Below are positions 9,112-47,234 of a stretch of 64,000 nt of DNA, piece after piece. How positions within the stretch are numbered: the first letter of the stretch is position 1; every line of letters begins with the position of its first letter. The notes under the pieces are model-generated. The model made no database searches and was not told the origin of the DNA. It saw nothing but the letters and a program-made list of their open reading frames with translations. Location of the stretch: NCBI GenBank assembly GCA_965207135.1, contig OZ242272.1:2682275-2746274 (forward strand). Reading direction: 5' to 3'. Source of the DNA: Chloroflexota bacterium. Its GTDB lineage: Bacteria; Chloroflexota; UBA11872; VXOZ01. Made by a program: the position numbers and the translations under genes.

Positions 9112-10965
9112 TTAGCGTGTGCGAATATCAATGCCACCGCCGCCGATGCTCCCGCCCACTCGTGACGGTATGGCGACCTCTTCCCCTTCGCTGATGCCGC
9201 TCAGGATTTCCGATACTTCGCTGTCCCGTACGCCAACCTCAACGACACGCCGTTCCAGATCGTCCCCTGCTTGCCGCACGTAGACGACGCGCTCGTCACC
9301 TTCCCGCCGGATTGCCCTATTAGGCAGCAGCAGGACGTTTGCAAGGCTTGAAACTTCGATCACGGCGTTCGCGGAGAGTCCTCCCCGCAGGTTTTGGTTG
9401 CCCGGTTCCAGCCGAATAGTAATGGGATAGAGCACCACGCCCTGTTGTTCAACAGCGGTTGGGGAGATTGTCTCTACCGTGCCGGCGATCTTCTCATCGG
9501 GTGACGCATACGTGGTCACCACAACCGGCTGCCCGACTTGAATGGACGAAACATCTGCCTCGTCCACTCTTGCCTGCATTTCGATCCGGTCCGCGCGCAC
9601 CAGTGTGACAACCTTATTGCCTGCCTTCTGACCGACATAGCCCTCCACGGCAGCCACCACACCGGCAAACGGCGCCCGCAACACGGCTTGGGTCAAGTCG
9701 CGTTTCGCTTTCTCAAGATTCAATTGCGCGCGCTCGACCTGAAGCTGCTGCAGCTCCACCTCCTGCGAATTGGCGCCGGCGCGGACTGTGTCCAAGTCGA
9801 GGCGGGCACGTTCAATATCGTTGTCCGCCTTTCGCTGCGCCTCTTCGAGCTCGGTTTGGGCAGTCTGCACCTTATCCCTGGCTTCTTCTACTTTCTCCGT
9901 GCTTGGCTGCACCAGCGCATTTTGTTCGTCAATAGCGATTGCCAGCGCATCCCTCGCGCTCTGGACCTCTCGTTCGGCTGCTTGCAGATCACTGCCCGCC
10001 GACACGCGCACGCTCTGAAGGTTGAGCTGCGCCTCTACCAACTTGGCCGTTAGCTCGCCAACAATGGTGCCTGGGGGTGGATTGCCGGACAATTCGTCCT
10101 GTCGAATGCTAATCTCCTGGTCGACGCGGTCTTTCACCTCCTTGAGGTTCTTCTGCGCGTCTTCCAGTTCGGCACGGTGTGATTCACTACCATCCTTGCG
10201 CAGTCTTGCCGCCGCATCGTCGAGACGCTTCTGAGCTTCTTCCAACTCGCTGGTGAACCCCGCGATGTCCTTGCGTACGCGTTCTTTCTCTTTCTCAACT
10301 GCGTTTTGCGCGGCCAATAGCGCGTTATTGGCCGCTTGGATTTTTGCAGCGCCACCGCCGGCGCGCAGCGCAGCCAGCCTCTCTTCCGCTTGTAGCAGGG
10401 CGCTTCTGGCGTCGGCCACTTTCTTATCGGCTGCCTTTACGCCGCTCTCTTCAGGACTAAGCAAGTCCGCCAGCGCTTTTTCGGCATCTTCCAAGGTAGT
10501 TCTGGCATTTCTCAGATTTGCTTCCGCCTGGGACTGCGCAGATTCCAAAGCGAGTTCCGCCTTGCGCACATCCTCTGAAGCGCTCGGCGCCAGGAGCTTT
10601 TCCAGGTTAATTTCAGCGGTACGCAAATTCGACTCTTCCCGCAGCACCGCATCCCGTAGTTCCAGGTCGTCCAGAGAGGCAAGCTGGTCGTCTTTCTCCA
10701 CGGCATCCCCTACGGCAACAAAGACCTCAAGGATGTCTCCCATCACAGGAAAGGCGAGCTCCACTTGCTCCGGATACACAATGTTTCCGGAGGCGTTCAC
10801 CGTAGTCATAATCGTCCCGCGAGTGACCGTGACAAACTCAGTTTCCGCAACGACCTGGCCTTCGTCGTCATCGCCGCCGAGAAACTGCAAAACGGCAAAT
10901 CTTGCACCAACAATGAAGGCTGCCAAGATAACTATCAGGACGATGATTTTCTGCCATCTAGCCAC
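9112..10965 (-). CDS. HlyD/MacA-family periplasmic adaptor (efflux membrane-fusion protein) with a very long coiled coil
   Basis: 617 aa. N-terminal TM anchor. Biotinyl-lipoyl-like halves (VAVGDAVEKDDQLASLD ... APFAGVV). About 350 aa of heptad-rich A/E/L/R sequence. C-terminal beta-barrel region. Confidence 0.8.
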   Translation of the reverse strand: MARWQKIIVLIVILAAFIVGARFAVLQFLGGDDDEGQVVAETEFVTVTRGTIMTTVNASGNIVYPEQVELAFPVMGDILEVFVAVGDAVEKDDQLASLDDLELRDAVLREESNLRTAEINLEKLLAPSASEDVRKAELALESAQSQAEANLRNARTTLEDAEKALADLLSPEESGVKAADKKVADARSALLQAEERLAALRAGGGAAKIQAANNALLAAQNAVEKEKERVRKDIAGFTSELEEAQKRLDDAAARLRKDGSESHRAELEDAQKNLKEVKDRVDQEISIRQDELSGNPPPGTIVGELTAKLVEAQLNLQSVRVSAGSDLQAAEREVQSARDALAIAIDEQNALVQPSTEKVEEARDKVQTAQTELEEAQRKADNDIERARLDLDTVRAGANSQEVELQQLQVERAQLNLEKAKRDLTQAVLRAPFAGVVAAVEGYVGQKAGNKVVTLVRADRIEMQARVDEADVSSIQVGQPVVVTTYASPDEKIAGTVETISPTAVEQQGVVLYPITIRLEPGNQNLRGGLSANAVIEVSSLANVLLLPNRAIRREGDERVVYVRQAGDDLERRVVEVGVRDSEVSEILSGISEGEEVAIPSRVGGSIGGGGIDIRTR

Positions 10966-33451: not shown

Positions 33452-35251
33452 TTGCTTGTGGAGGGACTTTTCTTAACTTTCATGATTGACCCCATTCAGT
33501 CTTTAGCATTCTCCATGCACTCCAATCCAGGCGTGTATGCTCTCCTGCTTGGATCGGGCGTATCTAGGTCTGCGCAAATTCCAACGGGCTGGGAGATAAC
33601 GCTAGACCTGATTCGGAAGCTGGCAGCGGCATCGAATGAGTCGGCCGAGCCTGACCCCGAACGGTGGTTTCAGGAAAAGTGTGGGGAACCGCCGGACTAC
33701 TCAAAGCTTCTCAACGAGCTAGCCAAGACGCCAGCCGAGCGGCAGCAATTGCTGCGTCCATACTTCGAGCCAAACGAGCAGGAACGAGAAGAAGGCGCGA
33801 AAAAGCCTACAGCCGCGCACCGAGCTATTGCCCAACTAGTCGCCAAAGGCTATATCAGAATCATTATCACGACGAATTTTGATCGTTTAATCGAAAAGGC
33901 CTTAGAAGACGTAGGGATTGCAGCTACAGTTCTGAGTTCCCCGGATGATGTTCGGGGCGCGCCCCCGCTTATCCACATGTCATGCTGCGTTCTCAAACTT
34001 CACGGCGACTATCTCGACACGCGCATTCGTAATACGCCCACTGAACTTGATACCTACCCAGAGGAATTTGAGCAACTCCTTGATCGCATTCTTGACGAGT
34101 TTGGACTCATCGTATGTGGCTGGTCCGCGGCGTGGGATACGGCTTTGTACAAAGCGCTTTTGGACGCCCCATCCCGACGCTACACAACCTATTGGGCAGT
34201 ACACAAGGAAGTTAGTGGTCAGGCACGACAGGTTATCAAACGTCATTGTGCCGAGGAAATCCCAATTGATGGTGCCGACGGATTTTTAAAGGCCGTCCAT
34301 CAGCAAGTCGAGTCTCTCGAACAATCCTCGCAACCCAAGCCCATTACCTCAGAGATTGCGATCAAGCGCTTAGAGCCGTATCTTTCCGAGCCGCGATACC
34401 GAATACAGCTGTCAAAGCTCATAAAGGAGAACGTAGATCAAGTAGTCGAGGAAACTTCCGGCCAAGACTTCGGCATGCAAGATCCCAATCCTGGCGAGAA
34501 TCTTGTAACGACACTTGTCCACGCCTACGAAACTGCCTGCTCAACCCTCCTCGCTATGGCAACGGTTGGAGGCCGTTGGGCGGAAGAATACCATTGGGAT
34601 GTCTGGCAAGAAGCGTTGGAGCGTCTCGCAACGGTTTCTAACATTAGAGGACACGGGATTTTGCCTAATTTGCGCTTCTATCCAGCCACTCTGTTGCTCT
34701 ATGCATTGGGCTTGGGAGCAGTCGCGTCCGAGCGGCTTGAATTCCTTGGTCACATCTTTTGCGCTCGGGTTCGCCAGGAAGGTGGCAATGTGTGGCCTGC
34801 TGTCTTCCAACTTCCACGAATCGCACTGTCAGATTCGGACGCGAGAAGTCACTTGATCGGGATGGAAAAACGCTTGGCGCCATTTAGCGACTGGATACAT
34901 GATAAGCTGCGAAAGCACACGAAAAGCGTCATTCCCGACGACCAGTATACATTCGACTTCGACAAGCTCGAGATATTGATCGCATTGGGGTACGCACACC
35001 ACTCCAACAAAATATTAGGAAGCTACATTACTCCTATCGGCGCATTCGGATACCGCGGTGAGAACACCATACGAATTGTAAGGGACATCGAGGCGTCTAT
35101 CCGGACGCACAGTCACAATTCACCTTACGTCAGATCCGGAATCTTTGGCGATACTGCGAGTGATTGCCAACAGAATACTGAAAGGTTTAAAGACGAGTGC
35201 AATAACCTGCCGCCGTTTTGGTATCGCTATAGTGATTCGACGTGGATATGA
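33452..35251 (+). CDS. SIR2-family (SIR2_2-type, defence-associated sirtuin-like) protein with an uncharacterised ~300-aa helical C-terminal domain
   Basis: N-terminal domain motifs YALLLGSGVSRSAQIPTGWE (NAD-binding glycine loop), IIITTNFDRLIE (Asn/Asp) and VLKLHGDY (catalytic His). No P-loop anywhere. An alternative ATG start lies at 33482. The local GC is clearly lower than the flanks. Confidence 0.8.
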   Translation: MLVEGLFLTFMIDPIQSLAFSMHSNPGVYALLLGSGVSRSAQIPTGWEITLDLIRKLAAASNESAEPDPERWFQEKCGEPPDYSKLLNELAKTPAERQQLLRPYFEPNEQEREEGAKKPTAAHRAIAQLVAKGYIRIIITTNFDRLIEKALEDVGIAATVLSSPDDVRGAPPLIHMSCCVLKLHGDYLDTRIRNTPTELDTYPEEFEQLLDRILDEFGLIVCGWSAAWDTALYKALLDAPSRRYTTYWAVHKEVSGQARQVIKRHCAEEIPIDGADGFLKAVHQQVESLEQSSQPKPITSEIAIKRLEPYLSEPRYRIQLSKLIKENVDQVVEETSGQDFGMQDPNPGENLVTTLVHAYETACSTLLAMATVGGRWAEEYHWDVWQEALERLATVSNIRGHGILPNLRFYPATLLLYALGLGAVASERLEFLGHIFCARVRQEGGNVWPAVFQLPRIALSDSDARSHLIGMEKRLAPFSDWIHDKLRKHTKSVIPDDQYTFDFDKLEILIALGYAHHSNKILGSYITPIGAFGYRGENTIRIVRDIEASIRTHSHNSPYVRSGIFGDTASDCQQNTERFKDECNNLPPFWYRYSDSTWI

Positions 35252-35395
35252 CCGACACGTAACGTATACGGCAGGCAATCTCAGTGAGAATACAAGCGAT
35301 ACCTGGCGCTGAATTGCATCTGTTACGAGAGAACGAGAGACGGGCTTGCCGCTTCCTTCTCGTCCTCGGCAGAATCTCTGCTCAAGGAAGGCATT

Positions 35396-37381
35396 ATGGA
35401 GAAAGCCGCACACGGTAGCGACCAAGAGGTGACTGCTGCTTGCCGCCAGGTCGCCGATCGGGCTCGTCGGGCGAGCAATTCCGGCGACCATGAACGGGCC
35501 ATCGCCTACTATAATGACGCGATCTTCCTCAAGCCAGACTATGCATTAGCCTGGAACAATCGGGGTCTTGAGAAGTCCAAGCTTGGCAGGTATGAGGAGG
35601 CTATTGCCGACCATAGTCAAGCTATTCACCTGAAGCCAGGCTATTTCGAAGCCTTCTACTGTCGAGGCTGGGCAAAGGCCGAGCTTGGCAGCTATGAGGA
35701 CGCCATCGCTGACTATGATCAGGCGACCCGAATCAAATCTGATTCAGCCGACCTCTACATCCATCGAGGCAATGCCAAGTTCACGCTTCGTCGCTATCAG
35801 GACGCTGTTGCCGACTATGATAGAGCGATCCACTATAACCCAGAAAATGCTTCTGCCTATAGGTATCGGAGCATTGCAAAGAAGTGGCTCGGTCTCAATG
35901 ACGAGGCCACCACCGACTATGCCTTAGCCTACTTCTGGAAGGGCGATGGCGAAAGCAAGGCTGGCCGCCATAAGGAGGCTATATCGGACTACGACGAGGC
36001 GATCCGCCGTTGGCCTTATCATGCTCAAGCGTTTGTCATGCGAGGGGTTGCAAAGGACGAGCTTGGCAACCATGAGGAAGCCATCTCCGACTACGATCAA
36101 GCGATCCGGATCGAGCCGGACAATTCTAATGCTTACAATAAGCGGGGGGATGCAAAGAGCAACCTCGGCCGCTATGAAGATGCTGTCGCCGACTACGATC
36201 AGGCGATCCGTCTCAAGCCAGACTACTATGAAGCCTTTTGCAGTCGCGGTTATGCAAATGGAGAACTTGGTCGCCACCAGGACGCCATCGCTGACTATAG
36301 TCAAGCGATCGGTCTCAAGCCGTATAATGCCACAGTATTTGTTAAGCGGGGTGATGCGAAGAGCAACCTCGGCCGCCATGAGGAAGCTATCCTTGACTAT
36401 GATCAGGCGATCTCATTGGATTGGGAGAGGGATCCGGAAACCTACTTCAAGCGGGGCAACGCAAACAGCAATCTTGGACGACGTAGGGACGCCCTCCTCG
36501 ACCATGCTATGTTCTACGCCTTGCGGGGTAGAACAAAATACCGGCCTGGCAAATATGGGGACGCTATCGCTGACTTAGACCAAGCGATCCGTCTTTGGCC
36601 GCATCACGCCGATTTCTTTGTCTCGCGGGGCAATGCATGGAAAGAGCTTGATCGCCACGAAAGAGCTATCGCCGACTACGACCGGGCGATCCGCCTCGCG
36701 CCGGACGACGCCATGGCCTACAGTGAGCGAAGTATTGTAAATGTGAACCTTGACCGCCATGAGGAGGCCATCGCCGACTATGACCAGTTGATCCGCCTGC
36801 AACCGGACGATAGTCGTCCTTACTCCGAGCGGGGAGATGCCAAGAGTAAGCTCGGCCGCTATGAGGAGGCTATTGACGACTATGACCAGGCGATCCGGCT
36901 CAGGCCAGACTATGCTCTCACTTACTCTAAGCGGGGTGATGCGAATAGCAAGCTCGGCCGCTATAAAGAGGCTATAACCGACTATGACCAAGCGATCCAT
37001 CTACGTTTGGACGATTTTTGGACCCACCCCGGCTCAGACTACTCCAAGCGGGGAGATACGAACAGCAAGCTTGGTCGCCATGAGGAAGCTCTTGCCGACT
37101 ATGAGCAAGCGGTTCTCTTTGACCCAGATAACGCCTTATACTTCTACAACCGGGGGGAGGCTAATTTTACCTTAGGTAGGATCGGAGACGGACTGTCCGA
37201 TCTTAAGTCTGCGCTTCGCCTAATAGAGCAGAAGCTAGAAGAGATTCGTAACGCCAGTATTAAGCCTAAGGGTCAGGCGTGGCGGGTAGCGCGTCAACGA
37301 GAAGAAGACGCCTTTCACGATAGACTCATAGCCTCTATCAAGAAGAGGATTCAGACACTTGACAAGGCTGATGCGGAATGA
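35396..37381 (+). CDS. Tetratricopeptide-repeat (TPR) protein, at least 15 near-consensus 34-aa repeats
   Basis: 661 aa. The unit ...RG.AKS.LGRYEEAIADYDQAIRLKPDY..A... recurs with 102-nt periodicity that is also visible at DNA level. AAGGAAGG precedes the ATG. Lies 144 nt downstream of the SIR2 gene. Confidence 0.9.
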   Translation: MEKAAHGSDQEVTAACRQVADRARRASNSGDHERAIAYYNDAIFLKPDYALAWNNRGLEKSKLGRYEEAIADHSQAIHLKPGYFEAFYCRGWAKAELGSYEDAIADYDQATRIKSDSADLYIHRGNAKFTLRRYQDAVADYDRAIHYNPENASAYRYRSIAKKWLGLNDEATTDYALAYFWKGDGESKAGRHKEAISDYDEAIRRWPYHAQAFVMRGVAKDELGNHEEAISDYDQAIRIEPDNSNAYNKRGDAKSNLGRYEDAVADYDQAIRLKPDYYEAFCSRGYANGELGRHQDAIADYSQAIGLKPYNATVFVKRGDAKSNLGRHEEAILDYDQAISLDWERDPETYFKRGNANSNLGRRRDALLDHAMFYALRGRTKYRPGKYGDAIADLDQAIRLWPHHADFFVSRGNAWKELDRHERAIADYDRAIRLAPDDAMAYSERSIVNVNLDRHEEAIADYDQLIRLQPDDSRPYSERGDAKSKLGRYEEAIDDYDQAIRLRPDYALTYSKRGDANSKLGRYKEAITDYDQAIHLRLDDFWTHPGSDYSKRGDTNSKLGRHEEALADYEQAVLFDPDNALYFYNRGEANFTLGRIGDGLSDLKSALRLIEQKLEEIRNASIKPKGQAWRVARQREEDAFHDRLIASIKKRIQTLDKADAE

Positions 37382-40906: not shown

Positions 40907-41353
40907 TTGAAGGGAGTAGTCCCGGTGGACATGGTGAGGAAGTTGCTTGCGGTATTTCACGTTGCAATCGCGCTGCTGGCGGCAGTGCACTTTGTGTTCA
41001 ATTCTTTCTACCGAGACACGTTAGACACTGTCGATGTTTGGGGCATCTTGGATTGGCCGATCGCGCTTGCCATTGTGACTGCATTTTTAGTCCACTTTCA
41101 GCGCAAGCGCGCCTTGGACCGGCAACGAACAGACCAAGCCATTACCCAAGAGTACGTGGAAGCCAATGCAGCGACGTACGTGACCGCAGTCTTGGCGCTG
41201 TGGTTTTTCTCTAACTGGTTCAACTTCCTCAACTACGGTACCGAAGGGGAGTCGACCGTCAATGCGATCATTTGGGCGCTGGTCGATGTACTTGTGGTCC
41301 TGGTTTCAAGTGCCACGGGCCGCTATCTCTGGCGTAGCGCCGGCGACCAATGA
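40907..41353 (+). CDS. Hypothetical small membrane protein (about 4 TM helices)
   Basis: 148-aa ORF with alternating hydrophobic segments (LLAVFHVAIALLAAVHFVF; WPIALAIVTAFLVHF; YVTAVLALWFFSNWF; IIWALVDVLVVLVSSA). The start could be the internal MVRKLL. Confidence 0.5.
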   Translation: MKGVVPVDMVRKLLAVFHVAIALLAAVHFVFNSFYRDTLDTVDVWGILDWPIALAIVTAFLVHFQRKRALDRQRTDQAITQEYVEANAATYVTAVLALWFFSNWFNFLNYGTEGESTVNAIIWALVDVLVVLVSSATGRYLWRSAGDQ

Positions 41354-41618: not shown

Positions 41619-42386
41619 TTACCCGGCGGCCAGTTCCGCAAGTGCGAACGATAGGGCGAGATAGACGGAAAAGCCGGTGTAGCCAAGCGTGGCAGTATAG
41701 GCGGAATCAGCGCGCATCCTTACTGCGGCCAGGTAGATGCCCATCACAACCAATGCTACCGCCGGCTGCCAGTACACGCCATGTATTGCGAGTTGCGGCA
41801 GTGCGAAGAATAGCGCGCAAACGAGCCCGCCTACCCAAACGCCCAAGCGTGCCACCAGAATTGGGTAACAGAAGCCAAATACCAGCATTCCTACCAATAG
41901 CGCTGTGAGCGGCACGCCTACGCAATACAGAATTATGTCGATTGGCGAGAAGAATCCCGCGGGCGGCTCCAAGAGCGGCAGCGGATAGTTGGACCAACCA
42001 AGGGCAAACCGCAGCAAAAAAGTCAACAAGACCGCGACAAGCACCACCACTGCCAGTACCCAAACAGGATTCTGACGAGTGAAGGCCAGCGCCTCCAGTG
42101 GTGCGCCGCGGTAGCGTTTTGCCACGATGCGGAACGCGATTGCCGCGGCAACCAGTATGGGGATTAGCAACGCTACCGCAACCATAGCGCCTGGGGCGAA
42201 ACTTGTGCCGCGTAAGGTTGGGGGAGTCGCCGCGCCCAGGAAGCGGAGCGGAGAGATTGCCGTATAGAGGTCGAGGAGCACCCGGCTGAATTGGGCTAAG
42301 ACCAGCCATGCCAACCAAATCAGCACAACCGCAAGGCTTCCCCAGGGAAGTTGGATTTCACCGCGATCTTGATCCTTCGGCCTCAC
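41619..42386 (-). CDS. Polytopic membrane protein, function unknown (third gene of the AAA-VWA operon)
   Basis: GTG start at 42386, 6 nt after AAGGAG and 17 nt after the VWA gene stop. The track ATG at 42491 would overlap the VWA gene by 88 nt. About 7-8 hydrophobic helices. No CPBP EExxxR or HxxxN motifs seen. Confidence 0.6.
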   Translation of the reverse strand: MRPKDQDRGEIQLPWGSLAVVLIWLAWLVLAQFSRVLLDLYTAISPLRFLGAATPPTLRGTSFAPGAMVAVALLIPILVAAAIAFRIVAKRYRGAPLEALAFTRQNPVWVLAVVVLVAVLLTFLLRFALGWSNYPLPLLEPPAGFFSPIDIILYCVGVPLTALLVGMLVFGFCYPILVARLGVWVGGLVCALFFALPQLAIHGVYWQPAVALVVMGIYLAAVRMRADSAYTATLGYTGFSVYLALSFALAELAAG

Positions 42387-42403
42387 CGTCTGCTCCTTGC
42401 TGC

Positions 42404-44398
42404 CTAGACGCCACGTATGCGGCGTTCGATTGTAGTCTGTATCATGCGGGGCAAGCGCGTCACGTCGGGCACAACTACCGTCTGCAAACAACGCAGAAAC
42501 TTGCCATCCGCTTCCACCACGTAGGACTCACTCAGCGCGTCCCCGGGTACACCGATCCCAAAGACTATGATGCCCATTGCATCGCCGGTGCCGACCATGC
42601 CGTTGCGTCGCTCGACTTGAAACAGCACTTCCTGCAATTTGCGACGATTGGACGAGATCCCGTCCGTCAAGACTAATACAGTCTTGAATCCCTTCTGCTC
42701 TTGTATGTCCTGCACCGCTTGGCGCATGGCGCCGGCGTCGTCCGTCTTCTTGTGCGGATACTCAAACATTGTGCGAAAGACACCGCTCAGGTCCCTGGGA
42801 GTGTACGTGCGTTCGTTGGCGACAACTTGGGTCGTGAACGTGCACTCCTCAAACGTACGCAGCCGCCATACGTCCTCCGAGAACGCCATCATCTGATATG
42901 GAATGCGCAACCGCTCGTGGATTTCCGCGAAGATCACAGCGGCATCCACCGTATGGTCGAACTTGCGGGTCGAGTACCCCTTCGCGACCATACTTCCACT
43001 CACATCCATCAGGATAATAGCAGCAAAGTCCTTCTGGTGGTCGGCGCGCGGCGTACGCACGCCCTTTAGAAAGGCCTGTTCGGGAGAGACAACCAGCCGC
43101 TCCACGTGGTCGGTGTCGATTTCACCGCTATCGCCGCCGCGTCGGCGGCGGGGGCGTCGTCCCGGCTCCACAGTGCCAAAACGGCGGCGCATCATAATCT
43201 CCTTGAGGCCCTTGCTTCCGGCCTCGCCATTGAGCGACCGCAGGATCGCGGGTTCCAGGCGCCTCACAGCGGTCCGGTAGTCGAAGGTCGTGTAATCCGT
43301 CTTGGGCGCCGCTGGTCTTTCGCCCAGGCCCTGCATGATCGTCCGCGGCATCGGGTTTAGCCCCCCCGGCTGCGGCTTGAACATACGTGGATCGATCAAT
43401 TGAGGAGGGCCCTGACGATCCGGTCTTTGCCGCTTCGTTGGGTCCCCATCACGGCGGAGCTCGGCACGCTCATCCGGACTGCTCTCCACCTTGGCCGGGC
43501 CGCCCTCTTCATTGGCCGGCGCCGGCAAAGGATCGTCGTCGTTCTGTAGGGTCGGAGAATCCCTCATCTCTGCGTCATCACGTGCGCTTGACGACGTGCC
43601 GGCCTCGGCATCAAATTCAATGTGCAATTCGCCCACGGCCTCCGCAACGTCCTCCGGCGCAACAGCTTCGTCTGCTGCCGGGCGCTCGTTTTCCGGCCGA
43701 TCCTGCGTACGACGGCTGTCTTCTTCGATCAGCTCGTTGAGAATTGGCAGCATGCGCCGCGCGAGCACATCCAGCATTTGGGGCAGAGCGTCCCGTTGCA
43801 GCGCGTCTCGGACACCAGGCCACAGCACGTCAACGTAGCGGTTAGCGGTGCTCCCAATGTGCATAGGACGCACGCCCTCCGGCCACGTCTCGTAGAGCCA
43901 ACGCTCCATGAGGCCCTGCTGCACCTGTTCACGCAGAGGAGTGCTGCGCCGCCTGGCGGACGTCCATTGCGGGTTATCCGCATACAAAGCCCGCAGGAAA
44001 CGTGCAGAGCCCGGATGCCGCTGAAGATGCATGCGGTTCACGCGCAATTCGTTCACTAAGCGCGCAAACGGCATCACGGCGGCAAACGCTACCGGCGCAA
44101 TGCGCGAGAAGCTCTGCAACGCACGTTCTCCCATCACACCTGTGTGTTCTGCTTCAGCCATTTGCTGGCAAATTGCGCCCACTACGCTCGTACCGTTCCA
44201 AGTGTCCAGCACCCGCACGGGATAGGTCAGCGTGTGCGCGCGGGCGATGTATGCCCATTCGCGGCCCGCAACCACATTCAGGCGCGAATCCCGAAGTATC
44301 AGCCGGGCCAGTGCCACAACCTCCCCTTGCGCGTAACGCGTATTGCGCACGCGCGTCTCAAACTGGGTTGCCGAATTCGGTGTGATCGTGGTCGCCAT
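42404..44398 (-). CDS. VWA-domain protein with CobT/NorD/CbbO-like architecture (N-terminal helical domain, acidic disordered linker, C-terminal VWA with complete MIDAS)
   Basis: 664 aa. MIDAS DxSxS in ILMDVSGSM, plus VLVLTDGISS. Central acidic stretch EEDSRRTQDRPENERPAADEAVAPEDVAEAV...DDAEMRDSPTLQNDDDP. The start is 2 nt after the AAA gene stop. Confidence 0.75.
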   Translation of the reverse strand: MATTITPNSATQFETRVRNTRYAQGEVVALARLILRDSRLNVVAGREWAYIARAHTLTYPVRVLDTWNGTSVVGAICQQMAEAEHTGVMGERALQSFSRIAPVAFAAVMPFARLVNELRVNRMHLQRHPGSARFLRALYADNPQWTSARRRSTPLREQVQQGLMERWLYETWPEGVRPMHIGSTANRYVDVLWPGVRDALQRDALPQMLDVLARRMLPILNELIEEDSRRTQDRPENERPAADEAVAPEDVAEAVGELHIEFDAEAGTSSSARDDAEMRDSPTLQNDDDPLPAPANEEGGPAKVESSPDERAELRRDGDPTKRQRPDRQGPPQLIDPRMFKPQPGGLNPMPRTIMQGLGERPAAPKTDYTTFDYRTAVRRLEPAILRSLNGEAGSKGLKEIMMRRRFGTVEPGRRPRRRRGGDSGEIDTDHVERLVVSPEQAFLKGVRTPRADHQKDFAAIILMDVSGSMVAKGYSTRKFDHTVDAAVIFAEIHERLRIPYQMMAFSEDVWRLRTFEECTFTTQVVANERTYTPRDLSGVFRTMFEYPHKKTDDAGAMRQAVQDIQEQKGFKTVLVLTDGISSNRRKLQEVLFQVERRNGMVGTGDAMGIIVFGIGVPGDALSESYVVEADGKFLRCLQTVVVPDVTRLPRMIQTTIERRIRGV

Positions 44399-44400
44399 TG

Positions 44401-46884
44401 CTACTCTGCCGTTACGTTGTACTGCAAGAGCAGGGCTTCCAGCACCCGCCGCGCGGTTGGCGTCGCTGCTGACAGCACGCCCTCCTGGAAGCGTCCCACT
44501 AGGCCCGGGCCATCATCTGCATTCTGCGCAATTGCCACAAGCTCTGCGGTGCTCCAGTTTCCCGCAGCCGCTACGGCTGCGATCAATTCGGGCGAGACGG
44601 CATCCTGCCAAATGGCTTCTTGTTCCAGGTCAGCGGGTACTGCGCCGGCCGCCCAGCGTCGACACTGACCCACGAAGTCAACCACCGAGCGCAGCGCCGG
44701 CGCCGGCAGGCTGCGCCCAACACTGCGGAGAATGGCGAGTTCCTCTCCGGGAGCGGGATACGCAAGCTCGAGAATTGCGCCGAAGCGATTCTCAACCCCC
44801 TCATTGAGCGGCTTCACACCCGGCCCCTCGGGCTGACCGGTTGCGATCAAACGAAATTGCGGATGCGCGGTTACGGTTCTCCCATCCGGCAGTGTGAGCC
44901 GCCGGCCTTTGTCGAAGAGGCTATTCAGCAAGGAGTGAACGTCCGAGTAGGCGAGATTGTAGTCGTTTACCAGCACCATGTAGCCTTTGATGATGGCCTC
45001 AAGGAAGGCCTGCACCGTCCATTGTGTCTCTCCCGTGCGCAAGCGGCGACTAACTAGCAGGTCGTGCTTCGAAGTCTCGCCCGTAAACGAGAGTTCCACC
45101 AACGGCAACTGGCGCAGGCGCGCGAGCGAGCGCACGAGCGCGGACTTTCCGCTCCCTGGCGGGCCCTTAATGTAGACCGGCCGATCGAGCACGAGCGCTG
45201 CCTCCAGCAGCCGCAATGCCGTCCAACTCGAGCGTGTGAAGCAAGGCAACGCCACATCCGCCGCCGGCAGGTTGCCGATGGGTCGGGGCACTGTGATGCC
45301 AAACTCAGCGCCCAAGGTTGCCTCCAGTTCGTCCAGGCGCGCCGGATCAGTAATCTCAAATCCATTGGCGTCCCACGCTTGCAGGCGCAGGCCCAGCGCC
45401 ATGGGGTTGCCCGCCCAGCTATAGAGCGGCTCACGCAGCAGCAGACGGGTGCCGTCCGGCAAGGTGCAATCGTAGCGCGCGAGCGCCGGCTGCGCGCCGG
45501 GTGCATCGTCCGCAAGCGGCTGATAGACCTCGTTCTCCAGACCGCCCGCGCGACTCTCGGCCGCTCCGTCCTGCGCCAGAGGCAGAGAATTGTGCACAAT
45601 ACTCGCCAGGGGAACGACACTTTCCTCAGGCACCGTGACTTCAGGGAGGAGCACGCCGCTCACGCGACGGCGGGTGCGCGCCGGCCAAGAAACATCGCGG
45701 AGCGACTTCTCGACGATTTCGGCAGCCTCCTGCCGCGCTTCCGGCGGCGCCAGCGTCAGGATGGCATCTCGCGCAACTGCGGCCAAGTTGAAACCGGTCA
45801 GGCTGCACACGCTGAGCCAATGCACCAGCGAACGGGTGGACACGCGGTCGCGCATGATCCCGCCCACTTCCGGATGGCTCCGCAATTCCGCCGCTGCCGC
45901 CGCGACCGCCGCACACGCCTCCTGCGGCGGCATGGCATCCACCTGCTCCAATACCGCCACCCGCTGCAACTCGTGAAATACCGCCTCAGCCTCCTCTGCC
46001 GGCGGCAGAAAGTCCATAGCCACGTTGCCCGTGCCGTGACCGAAGCGCCGTTCCCACGTGACGCCGATCTCAAGCGTGCCGGTATAGTTGGGGTTGGCTG
46101 TGGCTATGACACCAAACTGCGGGTGCACGGGCACGGTCACGTTGCCCCACTCGCTTCCCGAAAGCACCACTTGGCGGGCGTCCAGTGCCTGCGTGAAGAC
46201 ACTGAGCAGGTCTTGGGGAATGATGTTCACCTCATTCAACAGCAGTTTCTTGCCGGTGAGCATGGCATCCACCGCCGGGCCGAGCAGAGTTGCCGTGCTG
46301 TGTGCCTGGCTACCGGCCTGGGTGACCACCTCCACCGACTGATAAAAGTCGCTCAGCGCGGTATCGCCACTGAACGTAATCTCGACACACGGCTCGTTCG
46401 CAAGGAAACAGAAGGTCTTAGCCAGCGTCGTCTTACCGCATCCGGTGGGCCCGGTAAGCAGAATAGAAGGGTTTGCCTGCTTCGTGGAAGCCACCGTCTG
46501 CGACGAAGACGCGGAGTCCGTGCTCATCACGTGCGCCATCTGCCTGAGCGTTGCCGTCATGCTCGCGGTGCAGTAGCGAAACACCTCATGTTCGCGGGGA
46601 ACTGCGCTTGCAAAGCTGCGCGCGCCGTCCCACCCGTCAAACTGGCTGGGAATCTCGTCGTGCGCCGAATCTTCGGTGCGCCCTAAGGCGAGCGAGAGCG
46701 GGGGCATGCGGCGCCGATACGTTTCGTTGCCCAGGGCAAACGCGTCCTCGAAGAGCAGGACTCCACCGCCGAGATCGTGCAGCGGCCTGCCGGAGTCTGA
46801 GGGGTCGCGCTGTGTCGAACGCACCGCGGGCTCAATCTCCTCTTCATCGCGACTGCCCAGGAGCCCACTCAGAATATTCCGCAT
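44401..46884 (-). CDS. Tandem AAA+ ATPase (two AAA_5 / MoxR-dynein-related modules in one polypeptide)
   Basis: 827 aa. Walker A 1 is LLTGPTGCGKTT with Walker B-like KKLLLNEVN. Walker A 2 is IKGPPGSGKSAL with Walker B-like MVLVNDYN. Both modules show the AAA_5-type HPQF(G/R)(V/L)IAT segment. Confidence 0.8.
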   Translation of the reverse strand: MRNILSGLLGSRDEEEIEPAVRSTQRDPSDSGRPLHDLGGGVLLFEDAFALGNETYRRRMPPLSLALGRTEDSAHDEIPSQFDGWDGARSFASAVPREHEVFRYCTASMTATLRQMAHVMSTDSASSSQTVASTKQANPSILLTGPTGCGKTTLAKTFCFLANEPCVEITFSGDTALSDFYQSVEVVTQAGSQAHSTATLLGPAVDAMLTGKKLLLNEVNIIPQDLLSVFTQALDARQVVLSGSEWGNVTVPVHPQFGVIATANPNYTGTLEIGVTWERRFGHGTGNVAMDFLPPAEEAEAVFHELQRVAVLEQVDAMPPQEACAAVAAAAAELRSHPEVGGIMRDRVSTRSLVHWLSVCSLTGFNLAAVARDAILTLAPPEARQEAAEIVEKSLRDVSWPARTRRRVSGVLLPEVTVPEESVVPLASIVHNSLPLAQDGAAESRAGGLENEVYQPLADDAPGAQPALARYDCTLPDGTRLLLREPLYSWAGNPMALGLRLQAWDANGFEITDPARLDELEATLGAEFGITVPRPIGNLPAADVALPCFTRSSWTALRLLEAALVLDRPVYIKGPPGSGKSALVRSLARLRQLPLVELSFTGETSKHDLLVSRRLRTGETQWTVQAFLEAIIKGYMVLVNDYNLAYSDVHSLLNSLFDKGRRLTLPDGRTVTAHPQFRLIATGQPEGPGVKPLNEGVENRFGAILELAYPAPGEELAILRSVGRSLPAPALRSVVDFVGQCRRWAAGAVPADLEQEAIWQDAVSPELIAAVAAAGNWSTAELVAIAQNADDGPGLVGRFQEGVLSAATPTARRVLEALLLQYNVTAE

Positions 46885-46919: not shown

Positions 46920-46961
46920 GTAGAGGCTAGCACGGGCCTTCTGCCCCGTGCTAGCCTCTAC
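46920..46961. promoter_or_regulatory. Perfect 17-bp inverted repeat in the leader/promoter region of the AAA-VWA operon
   Basis: GTAGAGGCTAGCACGGG, 8 nt, then CCCGTGCTAGCCTCTAC. It lies 36-77 nt upstream of the AAA start codon (46884, minus strand), in the divergent intergenic region shared with nfo. Confidence 0.6.
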
Positions 46962-47234
46962 CAGGCCCTGCTACCGACAGCAGCGCTCACTCAAACGGGA
47001 CTGTCTCGCAATGATTTGCACCTTACTCCACATTATAGCGTCAGCAGAGTATTCCTCGTGGACGTGCGGTTTTGAGGGGATGATGGCATGGTGTCTTGAC
47101 GTCGCTGATGCGCAAATCGCACGCATCGCCAATTCTCGCAGCGCGCCTCACCACGACCACGCGCTTTGGTATAATGAACCGCAGTCAGTTTCCGGACCTT
47201 TACCTTCAATTATTGCTTACGAAGGGATCAACTC

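Follow-up and report, generated by a model that had tools for sequence, protein, structure and literature searches.

The minus-strand locus described here, located within a window of 64,000 nucleotides of Chloroflexota DNA (the window being the whole stretch analysed, by whose numbering all positions are given), is best explained, with a probability that we place at about 60%, as a two-gene MoxR-class AAA+/VWA remodelling module that is restricted to the Chloroflexota, is accompanied by a clade-specific third gene, and works by the mechanism proposed below. MoxR/VWA pairs are widespread, and few of their clients are known, these being cNOR, Rubisco, cobaltochelatase, CO dehydrogenase and, via RavA/ViaA, respiratory complexes. 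The locus in the window comprises the following:

44401-46884, minus strand: ATPase open reading frame, 827 aa, tandem AAA_5 (MoxR-class, NorQ/CbbQ-like)
42404-44398, minus strand: VWA-MIDAS adaptor open reading frame, 664 aa
41619-42386, minus strand: open reading frame of the third gene, 255 aa, GTG start; polytopic membrane protein, predicted CPBP/Rce1-like pseudoprotease, clade-specific
42393-42398, minus strand: AAGGAG, ribosome-binding site of the third gene as read from sequence, 6 nt before the GTG

A gap of 2 nt (44399-44400) separates the ATPase stop from the start of the VWA gene, and 17 nt (42387-42403), containing the ribosome-binding site, separate the VWA gene from the third gene; re-reading of the sequence recovered this arrangement as the first-pass annotation had given it. 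In marine relatives the ATPase and VWA genes overlap by 14 nt, as compared with the 2-nt gap in the window. Approximately 7 kb from the pair are a gene with a SIR2_2 domain and a variable patch of low GC content.

Comparison with 73 related loci, each taken from a MAG of the Chloroflexota (74 sequences in the ATPase motif audit and 26 in the VWA partner set), demonstrates that the conserved unit is the ATPase and VWA gene pair and not the triad. Specifically, in 68 of the 73 loci the gene that immediately follows the ATPase gene on its strand encodes a VWA homologue; among the five without a VWA hit, four lie on contigs that end there and one (L016) has an ATPase without an adjacent VWA gene. 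The family extends to some 90 genomes at species level, none from a cultured organism. The idea that all three genes form the conserved unit is not borne out: the triad is not kept together across the 73 loci, the outcome named in advance as speaking against it, and the membrane gene is confined to one close clade. Within this clade, composed of the window and L001-L015 with ATPase identity of at least 78%, the third gene was found in all 14 loci long enough to reveal its presence. In a second clade an unrelated membrane protein occupies the same position, and in other clades housekeeping genes are found there. The third gene is best regarded as co-transcribed in the window's clade and not as part of the core machine.

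Although the membrane protein had been annotated as being of unknown function, its kind is not wholly obscure. An exhaustive HMMER search among 1.84 billion representatives yielded seven of them, the distant ones being true CPBPs, to which phmmer aligned the protein over its whole length (E 8e-5 to 1e-3). These phmmer matches are the sole support for CPBP homology, scores against Pfam PF02517 (15.2 and 19.2 bits) falling below the gathering cut-off of 22.4. Alignment of the window protein and four clade members places replacements at all three catalytic motifs (EExxxR, FxxxH, HxxxN/D):

41874-41900, minus strand: degenerate CPBP motif, EExxxR replaced by LVGMLVF
41793-41810, minus strand: degenerate CPBP motif, FxxxH replaced by FFALPQ
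41676-41690, minus strand: degenerate CPBP motif, HxxxN replaced by TLGYT

The third-gene product is a CPBP/Rce1-like protein in which every catalytic residue is replaced, and is predicted to be catalytically dead. In the window's clade it most likely serves as a membrane tether or adaptor, and is possibly a local client of the pair.

Variation in the third gene between clades also bears on the link to biological conflict raised in the first-pass annotation for MoxR-vWA modules; here it would mean a vWA-MoxR ternary (defence) system, the membrane protein being its effector or sensor. Such ternary systems have been described, including in Chloroflexi (PMC7159879), and the SIR2_2-domain gene and variable patch mentioned above lie within several kilobases. 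However, PADLOC returned only P-loop-level matches, no VMAP, iSTAND, FtsH or beta-propeller third component is encoded, and the VWA protein stops at its VWA domain, with no effector attached; the third component and vWA-fused effectors by which these systems are recognised (Kaur et al., 2020) are thus lacking at this locus. Moreover, GC content is normal, just one matching locus was recovered from each genome record, and the variable patch lies beyond the RNR gene and excludes the pair. Throughout the window's clade the locus sits beside endonuclease IV, HAD, Sua5 and RNR genes, and in other clades it adjoins housekeeping genes, among them LexA, ClpC, RadA, IspDF and CysS. With PADLOC negative, neither an effector nor a third component resembling VMAP encoded, and the housekeeping synteny stable, the suggestion finds no support, and we consider a defence role highly improbable.

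The remodelling-module reading draws instead on the two conserved proteins. The ATPase (44401-46884, minus strand) is composed of a small N-terminal beta region, a first module (D1), a beta-rich inter-module region (about residues 454-504) and a second module (D2). Pfam AAA_5 matches it twice (E 1.3e-35; 122.9 bits against a gathering cut-off of 22), placing it in the MoxR class. For the AF2 model (pLDDT 72.9), Foldseek aligned the modules with NorQ (9qh4/9qh8; TMt 0.72-0.75, 24% identity) and CbbQ (6l1q; TMt 0.69), and the helix-2 beta-hairpin inserts appear as paired strands 182-188/194-200 and 611-616/618-624, local confidence being low in D1; the overall fold and these inserts are those of MoxR proteins. 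Both insert regions are strongly conserved (F171-S-G-D174...E185; G602-E603...W622). D1 and D2 are 30% identical (E 6e-17), and the protein consists of a NorQ/CbbQ-like AAA_5 module that has been duplicated internally. The tandem arrangement first noticed in the window is a family-wide trait, and its motifs are distributed as follows:

45685-46476, minus strand: D1 module, about residues 137-400, all catalytic motifs except the Walker B Asp, which is Asn
46429-46452, minus strand: D1 Walker A, GPTGCGKT
46231-46245, minus strand: D1 Walker B, LLLNE
46090-46101, minus strand: D1 sensor 1, TANP
46045-46050, minus strand: D1 Arg pair
45832-45840, minus strand: D1 sensor 2, STR
44404-45189, minus strand: D2 module, about residues 566-827, degenerate site
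45142-45165, minus strand: D2 Walker A, GPPGSGKS
44962-44976, minus strand: D2 Walker B, VLVND
44830-44844, minus strand: D2 sensor-1 position, ATGQP, variable in the family
44782-44790, minus strand: D2 Arg finger, NRF
44542-44553, minus strand: D2 sensor-2 position, STAE, Arg replaced by Ala

D1 retains Walker A, the catalytic Glu, the sensor 1 Asn, the Arg finger and the sensor 2 Arg, the latter three invariant, and K151, T152, N217, E218, N264, R279, R280 and R351 are found in 74 of 74 sequences. Equally invariant in D2 are K580, S581, N640 and R700, while position 641 is E in 55 sequences and D in 19, the sensor-1 position (684) is Y, F, Q, S, A, R or L, and A780 replaces the sensor-2 Arg in 73 of the 74. 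D2 thus keeps its P-loop, Asn-Glu/Asp and Arg finger and has lost both sensors. The earlier description of two complete AAA_5 modules holds for the two Walker A motifs, present in every sequence, and fails for D2, which is incomplete.

In both modules, and in all 74 sequences, the Mg-binding Asp of Walker B is Asn, so that the canonical hhhhD-E pattern is absent. HMMER alignments set the N-E and N-D residues against the D-E of midasin Walker B motifs and, since the Asn is invariant in both modules, it reflects neither alignment error nor chance; the first-pass reading of N for D was correct. The Asn-Glu motif could make the protein a nucleotide-gated switch instead of a motor.

The partner encoded downstream has the architecture of CobT, NorD and CbbO, namely an N-domain, a disordered linker and a C-terminal VWA domain with a complete MIDAS:

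43724-44398, minus strand: N-terminal helical domain, residues 1-225, no known family matched
44138-44158, minus strand: conserved N-domain motif (H-E)-x-A-E, which reads Q-Q-M-A-E in the window's clade
44036-44053, minus strand: conserved N-domain motif N-[DE]-L-R-V-N
43283-43723, minus strand: low-complexity linker, residues 226-372, acidic and Pro-rich
43139-43189, minus strand: conserved basic segment RRRFGTVEPGRRPRRRR, candidate pore-inserting finger by position
42407-43033, minus strand: VWA domain, complete MIDAS, conserved C-terminal R-I-R motif
42992-43006, minus strand: MIDAS DVSGS
42743-42745, minus strand: MIDAS T552
42659-42667, minus strand: MIDAS TDG

No Pfam match to the N-domain was found even at E up to 10 in ten diverse members, nor any PDB sequence match. 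Linker residues 226-325 include 29 D/E, 13 K/R and 10 P with few hydrophobic residues, and the linker is acidic in most clades, L033 and L046 being exceptions. The basic segment sits within a conserved stretch of about 55 residues immediately before VWA strand beta1 and is invariant at R405, R406, R414, R415, P416 and R417 in 26 of 26 partners, making it a candidate pore-inserting finger; the assignment follows from position and conservation, the AF2 model of the partner, built from a shallow alignment, having a pLDDT of 36. The MIDAS reported for the window is indeed complete, with D465, S467, S469, T552 and D579 invariant (26/26), and R660, I661 and R662 are conserved at the C-terminus. At 23.5 bits the window protein falls short of the Pfam VWA gathering cut-off of 27, but VWA_2 is matched by every one of the 26 relatives tested (best E 5e-8), and 11 of them match VWA_CoxE weakly. 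CobT_C is matched by one of the 26 (E 0.083) and CobT by none, and against a PDB library that included NorD-, CbbQ- and CobS-containing entries the partner profile retrieved, at E up to 1, only weak integrin I-domain matches (E 0.27). The likeness to CobT, NorD and CbbO proposed earlier therefore extends to architecture and not to sequence, since no such family was reached in the Pfam or PDB profile searches.

The Arg-rich segment, invariant as it is, would also suit a pair that acts on nucleic-acid or ribonucleoprotein machinery, whether in responding to DNA damage or in assembling ribosomes, as a bacterial equivalent of midasin split between two proteins. The highest PDB sequence score (223 bits) is to midasin, the acidic linker and MIDAS resemble its tail, and DNA-repair genes adjoin the pair in several clades: a divergent LexA in 8 loci, a divergent endonuclease IV in the window's clade, PolX on the upstream side in 2-5 loci, and, downstream in 14 loci, ClpC and RadA together with an S1-domain gene. 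The midasin score is not specific, however, because it sums over six midasin modules, and per-module scores of 30-54 bits equal those of NorQ (57) and CbbQ (40-45). Furthermore, none of the loci has GAAC-N4-GTTC upstream; the palindrome of the lexA-ATPase spacers adjoins lexA, approximately 100 nt ahead of the putative promoter of the ATPase gene; the S1-domain gene, at a distance of 128-213 nt, belongs to a common clpC-radA-ispDF block; and the neighbours are clade-specific, as inherited synteny predicts. We regard this role as very unlikely.

Somewhat greater, though still small, is the likelihood that the locus encodes a divergent form of one of the known pairs dedicated to a particular client (CobS/CobT cobaltochelatase, NorQ/NorD, CbbQ/CbbO, CoxD/CoxE or GvpN) whose client lies elsewhere in the genome. 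The shared architecture agrees with such an origin, as do the best NCBIfam matches (GvpN and CobS), the best PHROG match (a CobS-like family) and the VWA_CoxE matches; CobS/CobT genes are often not linked to cobN, and in 5 loci a small molybdopterin-domain oxidoreductase lies just upstream on the same strand. Against this, the NCBIfam scores are far below their equivalog cut-offs (66.3 against 266.8 for GvpN, 28.9 against 558.6 for CobS), the partner profile reaches no chain of these families in the PDB search described above, and the known AAA_5/VWA pairs are, to our knowledge, all single-module ATPases with a D-E Walker B. Within 10 kb in the 73 loci there are no cobN, nor, Rubisco, cox or gvp genes, in agreement with the initial observation that no obvious client gene is adjacent, and no client candidate recurs across clades. 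The first-pass view of an uncharacterised MoxR-class AAA_5/VWA-MIDAS pair is upheld: the pair is a lineage-restricted version of the known chaperone pair of ring ATPase and adhesion-domain adaptor, its client is encoded away from the locus, and by analogy it most likely acts as NorQD does, as a variant of the MoxR/VWA remodelling pair.

As a remodelling module the pair would work as follows. Three ATPase chains would assemble into a ring of six modules, competent D1 sites taking turns around it with D2 sites that bind nucleotide and hydrolyse it poorly, and the VWA domain would be seated on this ring as in NorQ-NorD. The basic segment would enter the pore as a finger and touch the conserved helix-2 inserts, and the conserved C-terminus would contact the ring. 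ATP turnover, which the Walker B Asn probably slows, would twist and stretch the linker between VWA domain and N-domain, and this stretching would remodel a client gripped by the MIDAS and N-domain. Finger-in-pore and C-terminal contacts with the ring, together with a linker-stretching model, have been described for VWA partners, whose N-domains are unrelated to one another and determine target specificity (PMC13036017; PMC9976466). A bolder proposal, which we offer only tentatively, is that the family is a prokaryotic intermediate, standing midway between hexamers of single-module MoxR proteins and the concatenated rings found in midasin and dynein. It would be a trimer whose tandem AAA_5 chains carry active and regulatory sites in alternation, all with an Asn-Glu Walker B, and it would be driven by a separate acidic-linker MIDAS protein, whose N-domain, lacking known relatives, would recognise a new Chloroflexota-specific client. 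As unrelated membrane proteins have come to occupy one and the same place in the operon in two clades, such a client could be a membrane or envelope assembly.

Several features give the family wider value. Because D1 and D2 are fused and one of the two sites is degenerate, active and inactive sites would follow one another around the ring in a fixed order, and the strictly conserved Asn in both modules would constitute a natural experiment on how the Mg-binding residue tunes hydrolysis. The partner contributes a predicted target-recognition domain without known relatives. Though its reach is limited to those roughly 90 uncultured species-level genomes, the family could model how concatenated AAA_5 rings arose, and may indicate a step of assembly or metal insertion that is particular to the Chloroflexota of the sea and of sponges.

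Comparison with known systems reveals both similarities and differences. The third gene shares size and polytopic topology with CPBP (Rce1-like, PF02517) intramembrane metalloproteases and differs in the replacement of all three catalytic motifs. CobS/CobT, the aerobic cobaltochelatase motor (PDB 9ujv and related), likewise combines an AAA_5 protein with an acidic-linker, C-terminal-VWA partner of about 630 aa, whereas the window ATPase is a tandem with N-E and a CobS model score well under the cut-off. The Rubisco activase CbbQ/CbbO (PDB 6l1q, 5c3c) shares the fold of each module (TMt 0.69, 40-45 bits) and a VWA-MIDAS partner bearing a linker, and a few family members match the CbbQ_C lid (PF08406); the tandem ATPase, the N-E Walker B, the lack of Rubisco or carboxysome genes nearby and a partner unrelated in sequence set the present pair apart. 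Midasin/Rea1 also concatenates AAA_5 modules in one chain, some with degenerate sites, and has an acidic region followed by a MIDAS domain, a loop of which enters the ring pore (PMC13036017); the present system differs in having two modules per chain rather than six, a MIDAS on a separate protein, and no long linker domain. Finally, NorQ/NorD, the FeB-insertion chaperone of NO reductase (PDB 9qh4-9qh9), shares the AAA_5 fold and a partner of similar length (638 against 664 aa) in which a disordered linker joins the N-domain to a MIDAS VWA at the C-terminus. In contrast to NorQ, the window ATPase is a fused tandem whose D2 lacks both sensors and whose Walker B is N-E rather than D-E. The partner's sequence shows no detectable similarity to that of NorD, no nor genes lie nearby, and the family is confined to Chloroflexota. 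The NorD finger (residues 403-448 of 638; PMC13036017) nonetheless has its positional counterpart in the partner's conserved segment, likewise immediately before the VWA core, and the C-terminus of the partner is conserved as well.

The locus consists of three consecutive open reading frames (ORFs):

44401-46884, minus strand: tandem AAA_5 ATPase, 827 aa
42404-44398, minus strand: VWA-MIDAS adaptor (hereafter the partner), 664 aa
41619-42386, minus strand: CPBP/Rce1-like membrane protein (the third gene), 255 aa, GTG start

The gaps separating these ORFs measure 2 nt and then 17 nt, and AAGGAG is located 6 nt 5' of the start codon of the third gene; in each of these respects, as in strand, the sequence description in the first-pass annotation was accurate. 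GC content of the locus (0.59-0.64) is on par with the remainder of the window, and neither tRNA nor Rfam features were detected in the 64 kb scanned. Pfam analysis yielded two AAA_5 matches in the ATPase (E 1.3e-35), a sub-threshold VWA_2 match in the partner and a weak Rce1-like match in the third protein. NCBIfam returned GvpN and CobS matches alone, both far below threshold, PHROGs returned generic P-loop or CobS-like matches alone, and the generic P-loop matches produced by PADLOC included nothing meaningful.

Several additional features are found in the vicinity of these genes. A perfect 17-bp GC-rich hairpin (46920-46964, minus strand; GTAGAGGCTAGCACGGG ... CCCGTGCTAGCCTCTAC) lies approximately 35 nt 5' of the ATPase ATG and 3' of a TATAAT-like hexamer; relatives carry other GC-rich hairpins at the same site, some of them REP-like in appearance, with no conservation of sequence. 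Convergent with the third gene is an ORF (40907-41353, plus strand) encoding a small membrane protein of approximately 148 aa with three predicted TM segments and no Pfam match, which is kept in 13 loci of the window's clade. Further away, just past the RNR gene, a gene for a 599-aa protein with a SIR2_2 domain and one for a TPR protein of 661 aa occupy a patch (33452-37381) with a GC content of 0.52-0.56 versus approximately 0.60. At the same position, locus L074, whose ATPase is 95% identical, contains PIN-domain, Y1-transposase-like and SLFN_AlbA_2/HATPase genes. This patch looks like a variable island, possibly related to defence.

Searches for relatives of the ATPase revealed a restricted distribution. 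A protein search identified 109 clusters, for which every source name stating a lineage is Chloroflexi or Chloroflexota, one source being an unclassified 'uncultured bacterium'. Similarly, scanning 185,579 species, each represented by a single genome, produced 93 matching stretches representing 73 distinct loci, all in Chloroflexota MAGs, and many of their isolate labels look marine or sponge-derived. In 68 of the 73 loci the ATPase gene is followed immediately, in the same orientation, by a gene for a partner homologue, with a 14-nt overlap between the two in marine relatives; the remaining five comprise four contig ends and a single locus, L016. Only L001-L015, the window's close clade (ATPase identity at least 78%), have a detectable third gene. 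At the downstream position, 14 loci of a second clade encode a membrane protein of approximately 285 aa (c4), 14 others carry an S1-domain gene and, after it, clpC, radA, ispDF and cysS, and the rest have convergent genes. Since the partner accompanies the ATPase in 68 of 73 loci and the third gene is confined to one clade, the ATPase-partner pair is the conserved unit and the triad, put forward in the first-pass annotation as a three-gene operon, is a local elaboration.

L016 (9944-13942) is the sole locus with a tandem ATPase and no adjacent VWA gene. There, genes for an aldehyde dehydrogenase and an M3 peptidase follow the ATPase, and genes of sulfate assimilation are situated upstream. The locus was rejected as a pointer to a client; it has no VWA gene and offers nothing informative. 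The c4 gene lies 34-151 nt 3' of the partner gene (L037 and a subset of L040-L072; e.g., 14188-15051 in L072), has no Pfam match and occurs in two copies in L037 and in L047. Homology between c4 and the third protein was rejected (hhalign probability 0.3%), the two membrane proteins being unrelated.

HMMER, run exhaustively against 1.84 billion representatives, returned only seven matches to the third protein, three from the window's close clade and four that are true CPBP/Rce1-like proteins (Pfam 58-75 bits). In an alignment with these proteases, their EExxxR is replaced by LVGMLVF, FxxxH by FFALPQ and HxxxN by TLGYT in the window protein and in four clade members. Judged by these substitutions, the third protein is a predicted CPBP-derived pseudoenzyme confined to one narrow clade.

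Within the ATPase, an alignment of 74 family members was used to audit the motifs of both modules, D1 and D2. In D1, K151 and T152 (Walker A), E218 (catalytic Glu), N264 (sensor 1), R279 and R280 (Arg finger) and R351 (sensor 2) are invariant, and Asn precedes the catalytic Glu in all 74 sequences. In D2, K580, S581, N640 and R700 are likewise invariant and position 641 is Glu in 55 sequences and Asp in 19; sensor 1 is not conserved (Y/F/Q/S/A/R/L), and Ala replaces the sensor 2 Arg in 73 of 74. HMMER alignments to midasin match its Walker B Asp with Asn in both D1 and D2, bearing out the earlier reading of Asn at this position. The two modules are 30% identical (E 6e-17) and have in common N-E and F-[ST]-G-[DE]-T motifs, which suggests that the duplication probably arose within this lineage, once Asn was fixed.

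An AF2 model of the ATPase (pLDDT 72.9) matches NorQ module by module (TMt 0.72-0.75, 24% identity), as well as CbbQ (TMt 0.69), and gives only long multi-module alignments at low TM to dynein. The whole-ATPase profile scores 223 bits to midasin versus 70 to CbbQ, the former value being an artefact of summation over several midasin modules; single-module scores equal those to NorQ and CbbQ, and special kinship to midasin was therefore rejected.

Characterization of the partner relied upon an alignment of 26 diverse sequences translated from the loci, a profile search of the protein database having recovered only the same 19 close sequences. Invariant residues in this alignment include the MIDAS (D465, S467, S469, T552, D579), a C-terminal R-I-R and a basic segment (R405, R406, R414, R415, P416, R417) belonging to a conserved stretch of approximately 55 residues immediately before strand beta1, together with W48, Y59-P60, W67, E82, G87 and N116-x-x-R-V-N121 in the N-domain. 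The linker is acidic and Pro-rich in the window protein (29 D/E versus 13 K/R) and in most, not all, clades. The AF2 model of the partner, built on an alignment of 19 sequences at least 77% identical, is too poor for use (pLDDT 35.7). Positions 78-82 read H-E-x-A-E in most clades (H in 23/26, E in 21/26), a motif that raised the suspicion of kinship to the presumed metallopeptidase N-domains found in other VWA proteins; this link is unsupported, the N-domain having no Pfam match even at E up to 10. Q-Q-M-A-E (44138-44158) occurs only in the window's clade, which also carries the dead CPBP-like gene, and may signal that a metal-binding or catalytic site has been lost.

Generic VWA profiles match all 26 partners, the CobT, CobT_C and CoxE profiles have essentially no match among them, and a PDB search with the partner family profile did not find NorD, CbbO or CobT chains. 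The failure of these tests of family membership disfavours the view that the pair is an ordinary chelatase or activase whose client gene is unlinked. Moreover, cobN, nor, Rubisco, cox and gvp genes are absent from all 73 loci, extending the initial observation that no obvious client gene is adjacent. In five loci (L018, L019, L020, L044, L065), a protein of approximately 200 aa with an Oxidored_molyb domain is encoded directly 5' of the ATPase on the same strand; it is conceivable that this protein is a clade-specific client of a metal-centre chaperone.

Upstream neighbours are clade-specific: endonuclease IV/HAD/Sua5 in the window's clade and, in others, LexA, PolX, a GT4 glycosyltransferase, a molybdopterin-domain protein or an MFS fusion. 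The suggestion that the genes belong to a biological conflict system, and with it a role in defence, is disfavoured by stable synteny with housekeeping genes, by the absence of effector domains and by the negative PADLOC result. Neighbouring genes in three clades, as well as the Arg-rich segment of the partner, hint at involvement in DNA damage or in the assembly of ribonucleoproteins; a search upstream of the ATPase found no regulatory evidence. GAAC-N4-GTTC occurs within 500 nt 5' of the ATPase in 0 of 74 sequences, a weak test, the LexA box of these lineages not being known.

In eight loci (L033, L046, L048, L051, L054, L060, L061, L066) lexA is divergent from the ATPase gene and sits approximately 200 nt before position 10001. 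A TACAAATATTGTA-like palindrome is present near lexA in the spacers of L046, L048, L054, L060 and L066, and TAACCTA is conserved approximately 50-110 nt 5' of the ATPase start in seven of the eight. SOS regulation is unsupported; the TACA-N5-TGTA-like palindrome in these spacers adjoins lexA and not the putative ATPase promoter.

A MoxR ATPase acting with a VWA-MIDAS adaptor is a well-known kind of system. New here are a tandem ATPase whose second site is degenerate, a family-wide Asn-Glu Walker B, a partner outside every named family, and confinement to uncultured Chloroflexota. A literature search of limited reach found no account of such a tandem-ATPase/VWA family, which is absence of evidence.

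Cryo-EM studies of NorQ-NorD provide the closest framework for comparison: the NorD VWA domain carries, at its N-terminal edge, a finger (residues 403-448 of 638) that inserts into the pore and touches the helix-2 inserts of NorQ, the NorD N-domain binds the ATPase lid, and rotation driven by ATP stretches the linker, remodelling the client (PMC13036017, PMC9976466). The N-domains of different VWA partners are not related to one another and determine target specificity (PMC13036017, PMC9976466). The pair has the components of NorQ-NorD, identically arranged; the helix-2-insert regions of D1 and D2 are also strongly conserved, and the C-terminus of the partner is conserved. What the data establish are these components and their conservation; from them we infer that three tandem ATPase chains would form a ring in which D1 and D2 sites alternate, that the partner finger would be inserted in the ring pore as in NorQ-NorD, and that hydrolysis may be slow or gated because of the Asn.
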